Positions 12,285-52,595 of a DNA stretch of 64,000 bases are shown one piece after another. Source of the stretch: an uncultured Chloroflexia bacterium. Its GTDB lineage: Bacteria > Chloroflexota > Limnocylindria > Limnocylindrales > CSP1-4. The position numbers and the translations under genes are program-made. Under the pieces are notes generated by a model that ran no database searches, was not told where the DNA came from, and was given only the letters and a program-made list of their open reading frames with translations. Each line of letters opens with the position of its first letter. The stretch's first letter is position 1. The stretch covers positions 679,020-743,019 of the forward strand of contig CAWBGT010000027.1 in NCBI GenBank assembly GCA_963788375.1, written 5' to 3'.

Positions 12285-12360
12285 TGGTGGAGCTAAAGGG
12301 ATTCGAACCCTTGACCTTCTGAATGCCATTCAGACGCTCTTCCAGCTGAGCTATAGCCCC
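12285..12360 (-). tRNA. tRNA-Ala (anticodon GGC), with encoded CCA.
   Basis: The cloverleaf was folded by hand: acceptor GGGGCUA with G3:U70, anticodon loop AUGGCAU, T-loop TTCGAAT. Confidence 0.9.
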
Positions 12361-26383: not shown

Positions 26384-26468
26384 TGGTGGGCCGGGGCGGA
26401 ATCGAACCGCCAAAGTCGAAGACGAGGGTTTTACAGACCCTTGGGCTCACCACCTGCCCGACCGACCC
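26384..26468 (-). tRNA. tRNA-Tyr (anticodon GTA), type II with a long variable arm, CCA encoded.
   Basis: Hand-folded: acceptor GGGTCGG/CCGGCCC, anticodon loop CTGTAAA, variable arm CGTCTTCGACTTT, T-loop TTCGATT. Confidence 0.85.
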
Positions 26469-26472
26469 ACGA

Positions 26473-26548
26473 TGGTGGAGATGAGGGGACTCGAACCCCT
26501 GGCCTCCGCGATGCGAACGCGGCGCTCTTCCAGCTGAGCTACATCCCC
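26473..26548 (-). tRNA. tRNA-Ala (anticodon CGC), CCA encoded.
   Basis: Hand-folded: acceptor GGGGAUG with G3:U70, anticodon loop TTCGCAT, T-loop TTCGAGT. It is 4 nt from tRNA-Tyr. Confidence 0.9.
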
Positions 26549-47115: not shown

Positions 47116-47856
47116 GTGAGGCGCTTCGTGGACCCCGGCGCCGTGATGGCTGCCTGGGTCGGCCTCGGCATGGCCGTGACGATCGGGGTCTCGTTCCTGC
47201 TGGTGATCCCGATCGAGCCCGTCTACTGGTACCTCGCCCTGCCGGCGGGCCTGCTAATCGGCTACTACGCCAACGCGCGCTCCGAGCGGGCGGGCGGGCC
47301 GTGGAAGCGCATCCTGGCGAACGCCCTGTTCGCGGGCCTGGTCACGGGCGTCACCTACGCCGTCCTGCTGCTCGGCGTGAAGGCGCTGTTCTTCAATGTC
47401 GACGGCGGCTACCGGGACGCCTCGTCGGGCGGGCCGCTGACCTGCACGACCGGCGCCGACTGTGTCTACCAGCGGTACATCGCCGCGGGCCAGGGAGAAG
47501 CGTTCGAGGAGGCCGGCATCACCGACGTGGAGGCGTTCACCTCGTTCTACTGGGGCCAGCAGCTCTCGAACGCGGGCCTGACGTTCGTCCTCTCGACGGG
47601 CGGGGCGCTCCTCGGCGGCGTGATGTATGGCTTCACGAACCGGCGCAAGCCGGAACGACGCCGACGGGGATCGAGCCCACGGGCGTCCCCCAGGGCTGAG
47701 CCGGGTCCGGGCCTCGGCGTGGCCCGTCGCGACCCACCGGGCCCATCCCGGCCTGCCCGGATCCTGGCCCAGCACGCTGCCCTGCCGGAGAGCGGAATCC
47801 ACCCGGCCCACCGCTCTCCCCGGGCCATGCCCGGATCACCCGCGATCCGACCCTGA
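47116..47856 (+). CDS. Membrane protein (hypothetical); the 3' end is uncertain (low-complexity tail after ~47650).
   Basis: TM segments 'MAAWVGLGMAVTIGVSFLLVI', 'LLIGYYAN', 'ALFAGLVTGVTYAVLLLGV', 'LTFVLSTGGALLGGVMYGF'. Confidence 0.35.
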   Translation: MRRFVDPGAVMAAWVGLGMAVTIGVSFLLVIPIEPVYWYLALPAGLLIGYYANARSERAGGPWKRILANALFAGLVTGVTYAVLLLGVKALFFNVDGGYRDASSGGPLTCTTGADCVYQRYIAAGQGEAFEEAGITDVEAFTSFYWGQQLSNAGLTFVLSTGGALLGGVMYGFTNRRKPERRRRGSSPRASPRAEPGPGLGVARRDPPGPSRPARILAQHAALPESGIHPAHRSPRAMPGSPAIRP

Positions 47857-48064
47857 CCGGGTCGCTCCTTGCTACCTGATAGCACCACTGGTGATCGGAG
47901 GCGGCACCAACAGCCGGTGCCCGTGGAAGGTCACGCGCTGGCCTTTCCTCCCGCTGGGCCGAACCGGGCCAACCCGCTGGGGCACTACTCCGCGGGCTGG
48001 GACCCCACTCCCCAAGCCGGCGGGCGACGAATCCAGGGCCCTGATGACCGCTGCCATGTCTGCT

Positions 48065-48097
48065 GAATTGAAAACGCCCCGGCCGATGACCGGGGCG
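48065..48097 (-). terminator. Rho-independent terminator of rpsT (hairpin CGCCCCGG-N8-CCGGGGCG followed by TTTTCAATTC on the minus strand).
   Basis: Seen directly in the sequence; it sits 25 nt after the rpsT stop. Confidence 0.65.
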
Positions 48098-48122
48098 CTC
48101 GGGTGACCGATGGGAATGCGGG

Positions 48123-48848
48123 CTACGCGTCCTTCTTGGCCTTGGTCGTCTTCGGCGCAGCCTTCGCGGCCGCCGGCTTGGCGGTCGCGGCCATGGTCGT
48201 CGTCTTCGCGGCCGCCTTGGTTGCGGTCGCCTTCGGCGCAGCCTTGGTTGCGGTCTTGGCGGTCGAGGTCTTGGCGGTCGCGGTCTTGGCGGTCGCCTTG
48301 CTCGCAGTCTTCGCGGCGGCCTTCGGCGTGGCCCTGGTGGTCTTCGCGGCGGGTGCATCCGCGGCCGACGCGGCGGCCGGAGCGGACTCGGCTCGGGTGG
48401 TCTTGCTCAGCGCGGCGCGGGCCTTGCCGGCGGCGGTCTGGGCGCCCTTGGCCTTGACGGCCTTGCCGGCGGCGATGCGGGCTTTCGCGGCCTTCGCGGC
48501 GGCGGCCTTGCCGGTGGACTTGGTGACGTGGCCGGTGCCGGCAGCGGTCGCGCCGGCGGTGGCTGCGTTCACCTTGATCACGAGGCGGCTCTTGCGGCGG
48601 GCGGCCGCGTTGGGATGGATCGCGCCGGCCTTCGCGGCGCGGTCGAGGGCCGAGATGGCCGCGCTCAGCGAGGTCGCGATGTCCGCGCTCTCGGGCTGGG
48701 CGGTGGCGACCGTGACGGCCTTGGCAACGAGGGTCTTCGCCGCGGACCGACGGGGCTGCAGGATCGCGTGCCGGCGCTCAGCCTGGCGGACGCGCTTCAG
48801 CCCGGACGGGTTGCGAGCGCCCTGCCATTTCCGGGGCGTTCTAGCCAA
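48123..48848 (-). CDS. rpsT: 30S ribosomal protein S20 fused to a ~150-aa Ala/Lys/Thr-rich C-terminal extension.
   Basis: 'LKRVRQAERRHAILQPRRSAAKTLVAKA...AAKAGAIHPNAAARRKSRLVIKVNAA' aligns with bacterial S20. The frame remains open through (A/K/T)-rich repeats to a stop at 48123, followed by a terminator. Confidence 0.75.
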   Translation of the reverse strand: MARTPRKWQGARNPSGLKRVRQAERRHAILQPRRSAAKTLVAKAVTVATAQPESADIATSLSAAISALDRAAKAGAIHPNAAARRKSRLVIKVNAATAGATAAGTGHVTKSTGKAAAAKAAKARIAAGKAVKAKGAQTAAGKARAALSKTTRAESAPAAASAADAPAAKTTRATPKAAAKTASKATAKTATAKTSTAKTATKAAPKATATKAAAKTTTMAATAKPAAAKAAPKTTKAKKDA

Positions 48849-49040
48849 GGTGGCTGATCTCCGTTCCGTGTGTGTGCGAGTGAATCACGACGCGCGCGAG
48901 CGAAGCCTGCCCGAGGCGCGACGGCGAATGGTAGCAGAGCCGCCCCGAATCGGGCCAGCCGTGATTTAGGGTTGGGACGGTGGCAGCGCCGATCGGCTAA
49001 CCTCGGGTCCGAGTTGGCCGAAGGGGAGATCGCGGGCCCG

Positions 49041-52000
49041 ATGAGCTGCACGGTGTGTGGAACGATCAGCCCGGCGGGACGCAAGTTCTGCGGGGAATGC
49101 GGAGCACGGCTTGCGGTCGCCTGCCCGGCGTGCGGCGCCACGCTCGAGGCCGGTCAGAAGTTCTGCGGGGAGTGCGGGGCCCCGGTTTCCGTGAGCGACC
49201 TGGGTCACACCGACGCCTCGACATCGGTGGTCCCGGCTTCGGGCCCGGTCGCGGAACGCCGTCTGGTGTCGGTGCTCTTCGCCGACCTTGTCGGGTTCAC
49301 GCCCTTCAGCGAGGAGCGCGATGCGGAGGAAGTCCGCGAGACGCTCACCCGGTACTTCGACATCGCCCGCGACGCGATCGGGCAGCACGGCGGGACGGTC
49401 GAGAAGTTCATCGGCGATGCGGTGATGGCGGTGTGGGGCACACCCACGGCTCGCGAGGACGACGCGGAACGGGCCGTGCGGGCGGCACTGGAGCTGCTGG
49501 ACGCCGTCCGCGCCCTCGGTCCGGGCATCGAGGCGCGCGCGGGCGTGCTCACCGGCGAAGCCGCGGTGACCCTGGGGGCGACGGATCAGGGCATGGTCGC
49601 GGGCGACCTGGTCAATACGGCGGCGCGACTCCAGGCCGCCGCGGCGCCCGGCACCGTCCTGGTGGGGGAGGCGACATATCGCGCTGCATCGGCCGCGATC
49701 GCGTTCGAGGAAGCCGGCGACCAGCTGATGAAGGGCAAGAGCGCCCCCGTCGCAGCGTGGCGCGCGCTCCGGGTGGTGGCCGAGCGTGGCGGCCGGGGAA
49801 GGGCGGACCTGCTGGAGGCGCCGTTCACCGGCCGGGACGAGGAGCTGCGCCTCCTCAAGTCACTGTTCCACGGCACGGCTCGCGAGGAGCGGGCCCGGCT
49901 GGTGTCCGTCACGGGTCCGGCGGGCATCGGCAAGAGCCGTCTTGCCTGGGAGTTCGAGAAGTACCTCGACGGCGTGGTCGAGCCCGTGTGGTGGCATCAC
50001 GGCCGATCGCCGTCCTACGGCCAGGGCATGACGTTCTGGGCGCTCGGCGAGATGGTCCGGGCCCGGTGTGGTCTGGCGGAGATCGCGGACGAGCCCACGA
50101 CCCGAGCCGCCGTGTCAGAGATGCTTGCCGGCCACGTGCCGGATCCATCCGAACGAGCCTGGATCGAGCCGGCGATCCTGGCGCTGTTGGGCGTCCAGGC
50201 GGCCCCGGTGGCCACGGACGAGCTGTTCGCCCGGTGGCGCCTGCTGTTCGAGCGGCTTGCCGCCACCGGCGCCGTCGTGATGGTGTTCGAGGACCTGCAC
50301 TGGGCGGACGGCGCGACGCTCGACTTCATCGACCACCTGCTTGACTGGGCCAAGGGCATCCCGTTGCTGATCGTCACCCTGGCTCGCCCGGAGCTGCTGG
50401 ACCACCGCCCGGACTGGGGCCTTGGACGCCGCAGCTTCGTCGCCGTCGCCCTCGATCCGCTGCCCGAGCCGGCGATGAGGGCGCTGCTCGCGGGTCTCGT
50501 CCCCGACCTGCCCGAGGACGCGATCCGGCAGGTCGTCGCGCGAGCGGAGGGGATGCCGCTGTACGCGGTCGAGACCGTGCGCATGCTCGTGTCCGACAGG
50601 CGGCTCGTGCAGGAGGGTGGCGTCTACGTCGTCGCCGGCGACATCTCCTCGCTTGCGGTGCCGGAGACGCTCACGGCCCTGATTGCCGCCCGCCTCGACG
50701 CACTCGCCCCATCCGACCGGTCGCTGGTCATGGACGCGGCCGTCCTGGGCCAGCAGTTCACCGTGGAGGGGCTGGCCGCCGTCTCGGGCTCCACGGTCAC
50801 CAGCCTCGAGCCAAGGCTTCACGGCCTCGTGCGGCGCGAGCTGTTCACGCTCCAGGCCGATCCCAGGTCCCCGGAACGCGGACAGTACGGCTTCGTCCAG
50901 GGGCTGATCCGCGAGGTTGCCTACAACACGCTCGCCCGACGTGATCGGAAGGACCGCCACCTTGCCGCCGCCCGCTACTTCGAGAGCATCGGCTCGGACG
51001 AGCTGGCAGGTGCGCTGGCGGGGCACTACCTCGCCGCGCACGCAAACGCGGCAGAGGGCCCCGAGGCGAACGCGCTGGCGACCCAGGCCCGGCTCGCACT
51101 CCGCGGCGCGGCCGAACGTGCCGCAGCGCTGGGATCCTATGCGCAGGCGGCGGAGCTGCTCGGCCAGGCCCTCACCGTCGCCTCCGAACCTGCCGACCGG
51201 GGTGACCTCCTCGAGCGACGGGGACTGGCGCTGTCCGCGATGGGCCGGTATTCGGACGCCCTGGTGGCGCTCGACGAGGCCGGAGCGACGCAGCGCGCGC
51301 TTGGTGACCGGCCCGCCGCCGCCCGCGTCAGCCGAGCTCTCGGCGAGTGCACGATCAACTCCAAGCAGCTCGAGGACGCACAACGCATGCTCGAGGATGC
51401 GGCGATCGAGTTCGCCGATCTCGAGGGCGATCCCAGCCTGCTTGGCATCAAGTCCCAGCTGGTCCGCGCGCACGTGCTCCAGGACCACAACGCCGCCGCC
51501 ATCGCCGTCGCCGACGAGGTCCTCGAGGCGGCCGAGCATGCCGCGCTGACGCCGATCATCGCGGACACCCTGATCTCGAAGGGCACGGCTCTCGCCAGTG
51601 TCGGCCGCACGCTCGAGGGGAGTGCCCTGATCGACCTGGGCGGCCGGCTGGCCGAGGAGAGCGGCCTGATCGTCGCCCGCTTCCGGGCCCTCAACAACAT
51701 GTCCGTGGTCATCAACGACGTGGACCCCGCGGAAGCCCTCCGCGTGACCCGGGAGGGACTGGCGCTGGCGCGCAAGGTCGGCAACACGGGGTGGGAGCGG
51801 AACTTCGTCGGCAACCTCGGCTATGGGGCGTTCCGACTCGGCGAGTGGGACCTGGGCGAGCGCGAGCTTCTGGGCGCCCTCGAGGAGGGACTGGAGCCGG
51901 GGGACGCCCTGCTGATCCTCAACAACCTGATCTCGATCGTCGGCTGCCGCGGCGACGACACGAGCGAGCTGATGGCCCGGCTCGAGCAGGTCTGCGAAGG

Positions 52001-52595
52001 GTTCCCGCCGGCTGCGGTGGCCCCGGTGCTGTTCGAGAGTCGCGCGTTCACCGCCTTCGTGGACGGCCGGTACGGCGAGGCCGCCGACCTGTGGCGCGAA
52101 TCCTCGACGGACACTGCCGCGGGCGCAGGCTCGCTGCTGATCGCGGCGATCGTCCACCTGTGGGCCGGGCGGCCGGACGACGCGCGCTCCGATCTCGCGG
52201 CACTCGACGCGCTCCACCTCCACCTCCCTGCGCTGCAGGCCGGACGCGACGCGATCATCGCGGGGTTCGCGGCGCTCGAGGGTCGGCGAGCCGAGGCGAT
52301 CCGAGGCTTTGGCGACGCGCACGGGAGGCTCACGGAGCTGCAGCTGCCCGAAGAGGCAGGACGCGTCGCGATGACCGCAGGGCTCCTGCTCGGTGCGACC
52401 GATCCAGAGGTCGTGTCCATGCTGCGCAGCGCGAGGGCGTTCTACGTCCGTGTGCGCGCCGTGCCGCTGCAGGCCCAGGTCGACGGTCTCCTCGGCGATA
52501 AGGAATTGGGCGGCACTCGGCCGGCCGGAGAGCCAGCCGAGGGGCGCCTGCTCGTTGGACCGGTGGCAGAGGGTCTCGACGCCGGCCCTGGCTGA
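49041..52595 (+). CDS. Multidomain signalling protein: double zinc-ribbon, class III adenylate/guanylate cyclase, AAA/NB-ARC ATPase, and TPR repeats.
   Basis: 'CTVCGTISPAGRKFCGECG...CPACGATLEAGQKFCGECG'. Cyclase 'LVSVLFADLVGFT...KFIGDAVMAVWG'. P-loop 'VTGPAGIGKSRLAWEF'. ATG at 49041 is preceded by GGGGAG. Confidence 0.8.
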   Translation: MSCTVCGTISPAGRKFCGECGARLAVACPACGATLEAGQKFCGECGAPVSVSDLGHTDASTSVVPASGPVAERRLVSVLFADLVGFTPFSEERDAEEVRETLTRYFDIARDAIGQHGGTVEKFIGDAVMAVWGTPTAREDDAERAVRAALELLDAVRALGPGIEARAGVLTGEAAVTLGATDQGMVAGDLVNTAARLQAAAAPGTVLVGEATYRAASAAIAFEEAGDQLMKGKSAPVAAWRALRVVAERGGRGRADLLEAPFTGRDEELRLLKSLFHGTAREERARLVSVTGPAGIGKSRLAWEFEKYLDGVVEPVWWHHGRSPSYGQGMTFWALGEMVRARCGLAEIADEPTTRAAVSEMLAGHVPDPSERAWIEPAILALLGVQAAPVATDELFARWRLLFERLAATGAVVMVFEDLHWADGATLDFIDHLLDWAKGIPLLIVTLARPELLDHRPDWGLGRRSFVAVALDPLPEPAMRALLAGLVPDLPEDAIRQVVARAEGMPLYAVETVRMLVSDRRLVQEGGVYVVAGDISSLAVPETLTALIAARLDALAPSDRSLVMDAAVLGQQFTVEGLAAVSGSTVTSLEPRLHGLVRRELFTLQADPRSPERGQYGFVQGLIREVAYNTLARRDRKDRHLAAARYFESIGSDELAGALAGHYLAAHANAAEGPEANALATQARLALRGAAERAAALGSYAQAAELLGQALTVASEPADRGDLLERRGLALSAMGRYSDALVALDEAGATQRALGDRPAAARVSRALGECTINSKQLEDAQRMLEDAAIEFADLEGDPSLLGIKSQLVRAHVLQDHNAAAIAVADEVLEAAEHAALTPIIADTLISKGTALASVGRTLEGSALIDLGGRLAEESGLIVARFRALNNMSVVINDVDPAEALRVTREGLALARKVGNTGWERNFVGNLGYGAFRLGEWDLGERELLGALEEGLEPGDALLILNNLISIVGCRGDDTSELMARLEQVCEGFPPAAVAPVLFESRAFTAFVDGRYGEAADLWRESSTDTAAGAGSLLIAAIVHLWAGRPDDARSDLAALDALHLHLPALQAGRDAIIAGFAALEGRRAEAIRGFGDAHGRLTELQLPEEAGRVAMTAGLLLGATDPEVVSMLRSARAFYVRVRAVPLQAQVDGLLGDKELGGTRPAGEPAEGRLLVGPVAEGLDAGPG

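Follow-up and report, generated by a model that had tools for sequence, protein, structure and literature searches.

Evidence for a translated, clade-wide extension of ribosomal protein bS20 in Limnocylindria (Chloroflexota)

Bacterial ribosomal proteins are usually held near-invariant in architecture, and lineage-specific additions are mostly those of organelles, eukaryotes, mycobacteria and bacteria of the candidate phyla radiation (CPR). The rpsT gene on a 64 kb stretch of DNA from an uncultured bacterium of the Limnocylindria (hereafter, the window) continues in frame far beyond its S20 domain. The locus thereby raises the questions of whether its product is a true bS20, whether the added sequence is coding, and what this sequence may do. 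The product is most likely the bS20 of its Limnocylindria (Chloroflexota) lineage, with a fixed translated extension. Based on two protein alignments (A1 and A2, with 20 and 101 sequences) and 78 coding sequences from the window and 80 related loci, the protein was divided into six parts, namely an N-terminal extension, the S20 core, a variable linker, a basic module, a variable A/K/T/P stretch and a conserved C-terminal motif. The gene and its parts are as follows.

48123..48848, minus strand: complete rpsT (bS20) coding sequence of 241 codons plus a TAG stop (48123-48125), with a TTG start (48846-48848), from the list of open reading frames (ORFs), the sequence and S20 hidden Markov models (HMMs)
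48819..48848, minus strand: N-terminal extension, residues 1-10 (M/L-ARTPRKWQG), preceding the first S20 profile position
48567..48818, minus strand: canonical bS20 domain, residues 11-94, a three-helix bundle by PF01649, TIGR00029 and predicted fold
48528..48566, minus strand: variable linker, residues 95-107, with the lowest conservation and a dip in the predicted local distance difference test (pLDDT) score
48393..48527, minus strand: nearly invariant basic module, residues 108-152 (VTKSTGKAAAAKAAKARIAAGKAVKAKGAQTAAGKARAALSKTTR), from conservation and a predicted helix
48165..48392, minus strand: variable-length low-complexity region, residues 153-228, with tandem repeats and low pLDDT
48126..48164, minus strand: C-terminal motif, residues 229-241 (KAAPKTTKAKKDA; family consensus KAAPKTT[KR]AKKAE), from alignment A2

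The bS20 domain, the reading frame and its relatives

The original prediction, made from the window sequence alone, had assigned the first ~95 residues to S20, and profile searches confirmed this. Residues 11-94 matched Pfam PF01649 (Ribosomal_S20p; E 3.6e-16, 60 bits against a cut-off of 29.5, profile positions 1-83 of 83) and, over the same span, NCBIfam TIGR00029 (58.8 bits against a cut-off of 33, positions 2-84 of 84). The same residues were aligned by phmmer with residues 6-100 of T. thermophilus S20. In the AlphaFold2 model, built with the 101-sequence alignment, the S20 bundle had pLDDT values above 90, and Foldseek matched the model to solved bS20 chains only (80-98 aligned columns, target-normalised template modelling score 0.8-0.89, root mean square deviation 1.3-1.8 Å). 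These results demonstrate that the N-terminal 95 residues form a bona fide S20 three-helix bundle. The family is otherwise a single domain of ~80-105 residues, and this protein, at 241 amino acids (aa) with 146 of them past the domain, departs from it in its usual size, not in homology.

Two features at the front of the gene had been overlooked in the original prediction. The ARTPRKWQG extension is invariant in both alignments and is replaced by LAKTPRTWTG in a more distant subclade of ~72% identity. Among the 58 orthologues whose N-terminus is of the ARTPRKW type, the TTG start is retained by all but 3, which have GTG. Behind the core, the linker has the lowest mean majority-residue frequency of the protein (0.64), and the pLDDT falls below 50 at residues 106-109.

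The long in-frame Ala/Lys/Thr-rich extension, also part of the original prediction, was borne out, with A 60, T 27 and K 26 among the 146 residues that follow the domain in the same frame. We considered whether it could be an artefact, arising from an overlooked stop or frameshift, from an erroneous assembly that fused S20 to neighbouring sequence, or from a tail that really belongs to an overlapping or antisense ORF. Such an ORF exists at 48103..48969 (+); it has 288 codons, is hydrophobic and spans all of rpsT. Because it shares its third-codon positions with rpsT, the GC content at these positions (0.92 through the tail) cannot by itself choose between the two frames and is no bar to the antisense one. 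Synonymous-codon preference, with the nearby enolase gene and the neighbouring gene for a 1184-aa ATPase as the reference, favoured the S20 frame (-0.81 versus -1.21 for the antisense shadow frame). Moreover, TTG makes up 84% of the Leu codons in the antisense frame versus 2% in the reference genes. Codon usage thus argues that the antisense ORF is no gene.

A number of public metagenome-assembled genomes (MAGs; L005, L006, L017, L036, L041, L038, and P0019, P0028, P0032, P0077, P0109) have a tail that is frameshifted, broken by Ns or lost where the contig ends, and many entries are labelled 'partial'. The GC-rich repeat is therefore error-prone, and the locus appears liable to both assembly and annotation errors. 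In the window, however, the ORF stays in the consensus frame through the module and on to the family C-terminal motif and the terminator. Its indels relative to the closest orthologues (L001, L002) are multiples of three only; nucleotide alignment of the repeat region with more distant orthologues gave compensating non-triplet gaps, which were taken as alignment ambiguity. Hundreds of orthologues share the module, the C-terminal motif and the frame of the tail, and the same architecture recurs in hundreds of independent assemblies. As a side observation on annotation, a few orthologues carry the names 'DNA-binding protein HU-beta' or 'trimeric autotransporter adhesin'.

To reveal the distribution of the extended form, 5.8 billion proteins were searched, which gave 3526 matches at E<=1e-3. 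The best 120 of these 3526 all have PF01649 and are 196-324 aa long, and those with names come almost entirely from Chloroflexota or Candidatus Limnocylindrales MAGs. A scan that took a single genome for each GTDB species, 185,579 in all, gave relatives in at least 418. The exact 241-aa protein of the window, with L or M as the first residue, was not found in the contig index by exact-sequence look-up. The 80 retrieved loci (up to 8.7 kb each, with the source genome viewed as the 64 kb window) are nearly all titled as Chloroflexi, Chloroflexota, Chloroflexia or Limnocylindrales MAGs, and the two that are otherwise named are probably mis-binned. An enolase gene flanks rpsT in 71 of the 80 and a membrane-protein gene in 69; this shared synteny indicates vertically inherited orthologues and excludes the loss of a stop through assembly error.

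Comparison of rpsT orthologues, which the original prediction had named as a check, thus gave the same architecture clade-wide and mostly in synteny. What would have undone the prediction, a concealed indel or stop where S20 canonically ends, is excluded by the conservation of the extension in the at least 418 species genomes. Judged from these sequences, the bS20 extension is almost certainly real, translated and clade-wide, and an artefact is exceedingly improbable.

A different concern is whether the long S20 could be a diverged non-ribosomal paralogue, while the ribosome is served by a short canonical rpsT at another place in the genome. When the S20 domain alone was used as the query, the entries named Limnocylindrales were long, or truncated at contig ends, whereas the named intact S20s of ~86-94 aa belong to Anaerolineae or to generic Chloroflexota/Chloroflexi (50-57% identity). 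Since the short forms stand under other Chloroflexota names and the long ones under Limnocylindrales, the extension was derived within Limnocylindria. The core of the long form is highly conserved, including an invariant AIHPN/ARRKSR segment, and the locus is syntenic across the clade. All of this speaks against a paralogue, which we regard as very improbable. The view of the original prediction that such a tail is unusual on S20 holds in comparison with other bacteria, whose solved chains listed in the PDB have 76-106 aa and none with such a tail, but not within Limnocylindria, where it is the rule.

Intermediate extended forms were also found. P0300 and P0301 are S20s of 116-117 aa with a short A/P/K tail, and an abundant form of 143-152 aa is represented by P0244, P0250 and P0260 (also P0264 and P0265), in clusters of up to 189 sequences. 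The latter lacks the module and may be a streamlined relative.

The basic module

The original prediction had described the whole extension as low-complexity sequence, which fits the distal ~90 residues and not the first third (residues 108-152), a near-invariant and non-repetitive module of ~45 residues. Its consensus is KSTGKAAAxKAAKARIAAGKAVKAKGAQTAAGKARAALSKTTR, and the stretch KAKGAQTAAGKARAAL within it is hardly changed even in the distant subclade. The mean majority-residue frequency of the module is 0.914, versus 0.849 in the S20 domain, and the synonymous codon diversity is 0.31 versus 0.35. As the module exceeds the core in amino acid conservation at similar synonymous diversity, the constraint lies on the protein and not on the DNA or RNA; the comparison of coding sequences shows purifying selection on the module at the protein level.

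The module was confined to rpsT products as far as it could be traced. An exhaustive phmmer search with residues 105-155 against 1.84 billion representative proteins (E<=0.001) gave 65 matches, all of them intact, truncated or frameshifted rpsT products except two probable chimeras; it replaced a module-only word-index search, whose 15 candidates held one uninformative match. Among the 65 are more distant rpsT variants with KAKGEQTAAGKARAAL and with MAHSSRTWTGAR or MANTPSAIKR at the N-terminus. The two exceptions, metagenome proteins P0159 with an IF2-like N-terminus and P0166 with an MscL-like one, were rejected as module carriers outside S20. Each is a singleton on a short contig (1133 and 956 bp) with the junction at a shared AAKAAKA-type stretch, and the low-complexity sequence probably seeded a chimeric assembly. 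Neither the module and tail sequences against Pfam nor the module profile against PDB sequences gave a match at E<=10. An origin of the module as an internal duplicate of the S20 helices was likewise rejected (hhalign probability 0.2%).

What, then, might the module do? bS20 is a primary binder that connects helix 44 with the 16S 5' domain, and without it both mRNA association and the formation of the 70S initiation complex are slowed (review PMC10931766). In the extended protein, the S20 core would occupy the customary bS20 position low on the 30S body, where it would bridge the 16S 5' domain and helix 44. In the AlphaFold2 model the module is a single long helix (residues 114-153, pLDDT 65-79). 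A segment that is invariant and basic, has many small residues (conserved Gly and Ala), is predicted as a helix at no more than moderate confidence and does not pack on the core is best explained as ordering on a partner. The module is attached to a protein that sits within rRNA, so the simplest candidate for this partner is 16S rRNA, or else an adjacent protein, in the foot of the 30S body. The module would thus fold upon binding, as an extra helix that contacts rRNA or a neighbouring protein beside the S20 site, and would act as a small additional ribosomal protein fused to bS20.

Several observations weigh against this assignment. The model shows no packing of the module on the core (predicted template modelling score 0.43). 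The basic residues lie all round the predicted helix, which fits burial in RNA and also a free single alpha-helix. The module-less lineage of P0244, P0250 and P0260 keeps a K-rich tail, so the module is dispensable for such an S20. On balance, we put the odds that the module binds rRNA on the 30S subunit at about even.

The distal tail and the C-terminal motif

Beyond the module, residues 153-228 consist of a K-poor A/P/E spacer of ~15 residues and then of A/K/T/P repeats (AKTAT pentapeptides and 9-residue units). The tail DNA has tandem repeats with periods of 15 nt (AKTAT) and 27 nt, which account for the variation in tail length. AlphaFold2 gave a pLDDT of ~30 for residues 155-241. The end of the protein is again conserved, with near-invariant columns K229, A230, A231, P232, K233, T234, T235 and A237 in alignment A2.

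Tail statistics were collected from 181 apparently intact homologues, for the region beyond the module including the C-terminal motif of ~13 residues. This region is 44-129 aa long (median 81) and is made of A (42%), K (20%), T (18%) and P (9%), with essentially no hydrophobic or aromatic residues. It carries a net charge of +0.10 to +0.22 per residue, with K-K spacings that peak at 4-5. Composition and charge are thus narrowly bounded although the length differs threefold; in this, the distal ~90 residues resemble a disordered tail whose composition is under constraint.

The stretch from ~153 to 228 could also be a neutral product of replication slippage in GC-rich repeats, tolerated in solvent, with only the core and the module of any consequence. 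The 15- and 27-nt repeats, the threefold range in length with no positional conservation of sequence, and the predicted disorder are all as expected for such a product. It would not account for the at least 44 residues past the module in every one of the 181 homologues, the bounds on charge and the near-absence of hydrophobic and aromatic residues, a conserved motif that always stands at the tail end, or the persistence of a K-rich tail in the related module-less lineage. We therefore consider a neutral tail unlikely. Our preferred reading, in which the tail has a role of its own, is that it would be solvent-exposed and selected for charge and composition over sequence. Its effect on nucleic acid would be electrostatic, as in the stabilisation of rRNA or help with the capture of mRNA or of a subunit. 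We propose this role only tentatively, at somewhat below even chances.

Lysine- and alanine-rich low-complexity tails are also found on Hlp/HupB and in the C-terminal domain of histone H1, and the original prediction had compared the extension to those of HU/Hlp-like proteins. The comparison holds for the disordered, A/K/P-rich composition; it is an analogy by composition alone, and no DNA-binding fold is present. Should it be taken literally, the protein would be a moonlighting histone-like factor whose tail, and perhaps module, binds DNA, so that it is nucleoid-associated or tethers ribosomes to the nucleoid, in the manner of the lysine-rich tails of mycobacterial Hlp/HupB, Ku and histone H1.

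The A, K and P contents, the lysine spacing of 4-5 and the lack of hydrophobic residues would suit such a factor. A few orthologues (P0021, P0075) are labelled 'DNA-binding protein HU-beta' at source, which we read as a reflection of tail resemblance. PAKKA-repeat lysine-rich tails modulate the DNA binding of mycobacterial Ku (PMC3553676). Against this, no HU/IHF, H1 or other DNA-binding domain was detected, S20 being the only domain found. The charge density (+0.17 per residue, with K 20% and T 18%) is below that generally known for H1 and Hlp tails. Conservation peaks in the unique module and not in the repeat region, and within the 64 kb window the tail is confined to one ORF, no other ORF having such a tail.

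The Limnocylindria tail shares with those of Ku, Hlp and H1 the disorder, the construction from repeats, the A/K/P-rich composition, the regular lysine spacing and the variable length. It differs in sitting on an rRNA-binding ribosomal protein, in being threonine-rich (18%) and less lysine-dense, and in following a unique, conserved and non-repetitive module. A histone-like function is, on these grounds, quite improbable.

Taken as a whole, an orthologous bS20 with an rRNA-contacting module and a solvent-exposed polycationic tail is the best explanation of the locus, and we hold it to be probable, though well short of certain.

Known counterparts, flanking signals and implications

Canonical bS20 (106 aa in T. 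thermophilus, 87 aa in E. coli) has in common with the Limnocylindria form the HMM match and the three-helix bundle, and E. coli rpsT also shares the weak TTG/UUG start. In E. coli the UUG start has been tied to an autoregulation that is still unproven, and UUG is not widespread for rpsT (PMC10931766). Relative to canonical bS20, the Limnocylindria form adds the 10-residue N-terminal extension, the 45-residue invariant module and the disordered tail of ~90 residues.

The bS20 of CPR bacteria has been described as bearing an additional C-terminal region particular to that lineage and as lacking a central region (Tsurumaki et al. 2022, PMC9297842); in one phylogeny, CPR are sister to Chloroflexi (PMC9297842). 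The likeness to the Limnocylindria form lies in the C-terminal addition and is drawn from the published description, not from sequence, and the Limnocylindria core is complete, unlike that of CPR. The rpsT products recovered with the module as query resemble the Limnocylindria form. Further extended forms among the search matches are the P0244-type S20s, with an N-terminal extension (GKTPRKYKGAR) and a KKPAA-repeat tail, and P0300/P0301, with the short A/P/K tail, whose group names include Chloroflexota/Dehalococcoidia. Both types have far shorter tails and no KAKGAQTAAGKARAAL module.

Chloroplast bS20c is likewise an enlarged bS20 of a bacterial-type ribosome (PDB chains of 102-202 residues). 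Its S20 match begins at residue 44-88 in the longest chains, however, so the extra sequence is N-terminal, and we assume that this is largely transit peptide plus N-terminal extension. It has no sequence similarity to the module or the tail. No description of the Limnocylindria S20 form was found in the literature.

The surroundings of the gene contain putative expression signals.

48859..48862, minus strand: Shine-Dalgarno-like GGAG, 10 nt 5' of the TTG start, read in the sequence
48928..48936, minus strand: promoter-like extended -10 element TGCTACCAT, 80-88 nt 5' of the start codon, from the comparative alignment
48070..48098, minus strand: intrinsic-terminator-like hairpin plus UUUU, 25 nt 3' of the stop codon, from RNA folding
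12288-12360, 26387-26468 and 26476-26548, minus strand: three tRNA genes; Rfam matched nothing else in the 64 kb

An in-frame TGA lies 5' of the rpsT TTG, with no other start codon in between. The leader adjoining the GGAG and the rpsT start is partly conserved among orthologues. In an alignment of the 200 nt 5' of rpsT (80 sequences), TGCTACCAT and the next ~15 nt formed the best-conserved upstream block, and we take this extended -10-like element to be a putative promoter. The conserved region 48849-48940 (-) as a whole could be a promoter plus regulatory leader. The Rfam scan of the window, which returned the tRNAs alone, found no ribosomal-protein leader and no family at the rpsT upstream region.

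The good intrinsic terminator of the original prediction was essentially borne out. At 48098..48070 (-), a GC-rich stem of 10-11 bp with a 3-nt loop (GCGCCCCGGUC-AUC-GGCCGGGGCG) is followed by UUUUC, and the RNA fold of 48040-48135(-) had a minimum free energy of -36.4 kcal/mol. The U-tract is too short for a strict terminator scan, which requires at least 5 U. A strict scan of 47700-49200 for sigma-70 promoters and terminators made no call, either at the -10-like element or at the hairpin.

With its own promoter-like element and terminator, and convergent with one neighbour and divergent from the other, rpsT appears monocistronic. The convergent neighbour (47146-47700, +), between the enolase gene and rpsT, encodes a small protein that is predicted to be membrane-bound and matches no Pfam family. 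The divergent one (49041-52595, +) encodes 1184 aa, with an N-terminal double zinc ribbon, an adenylate/guanylate cyclase domain, an AAA_16 ATPase domain and TPR repeats. This latter gene adjoins rpsT in just 4 of the 80 related loci.

S20 is used as a single-copy marker, and the frameshifts, truncations and mislabels of the tail matter practically for this use. For the biology of the group, the finding means that bS20 is nearly three times the normal size in an abundant, uncultured class from soil and fresh water that has no cultured, tractable members, and that the addition is in part more conserved than the ancient core. The conservation of the module points to a specific, unstudied contact of the 30S body beside the tie between the 16S 5' domain and helix 44, a site at which bS20 influences mRNA binding and subunit joining. 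More speculatively, and with rather poor odds, the module could be an undescribed ribosomal element, effectively a new small protein of the ribosome joined for good to bS20, that remodels the 30S foot and possibly offsets a lineage-specific 16S rRNA change near h6-h13/h44. The threonine- and lysine-rich tail would then be a polycationic arm of the H1 type, able to catch nucleic acid or subject to tuning through Ser/Thr phosphorylation. If this were true, Limnocylindria would provide a bacterial case of the protein-for-RNA and tail-based elaboration known in organellar and eukaryotic ribosomes.

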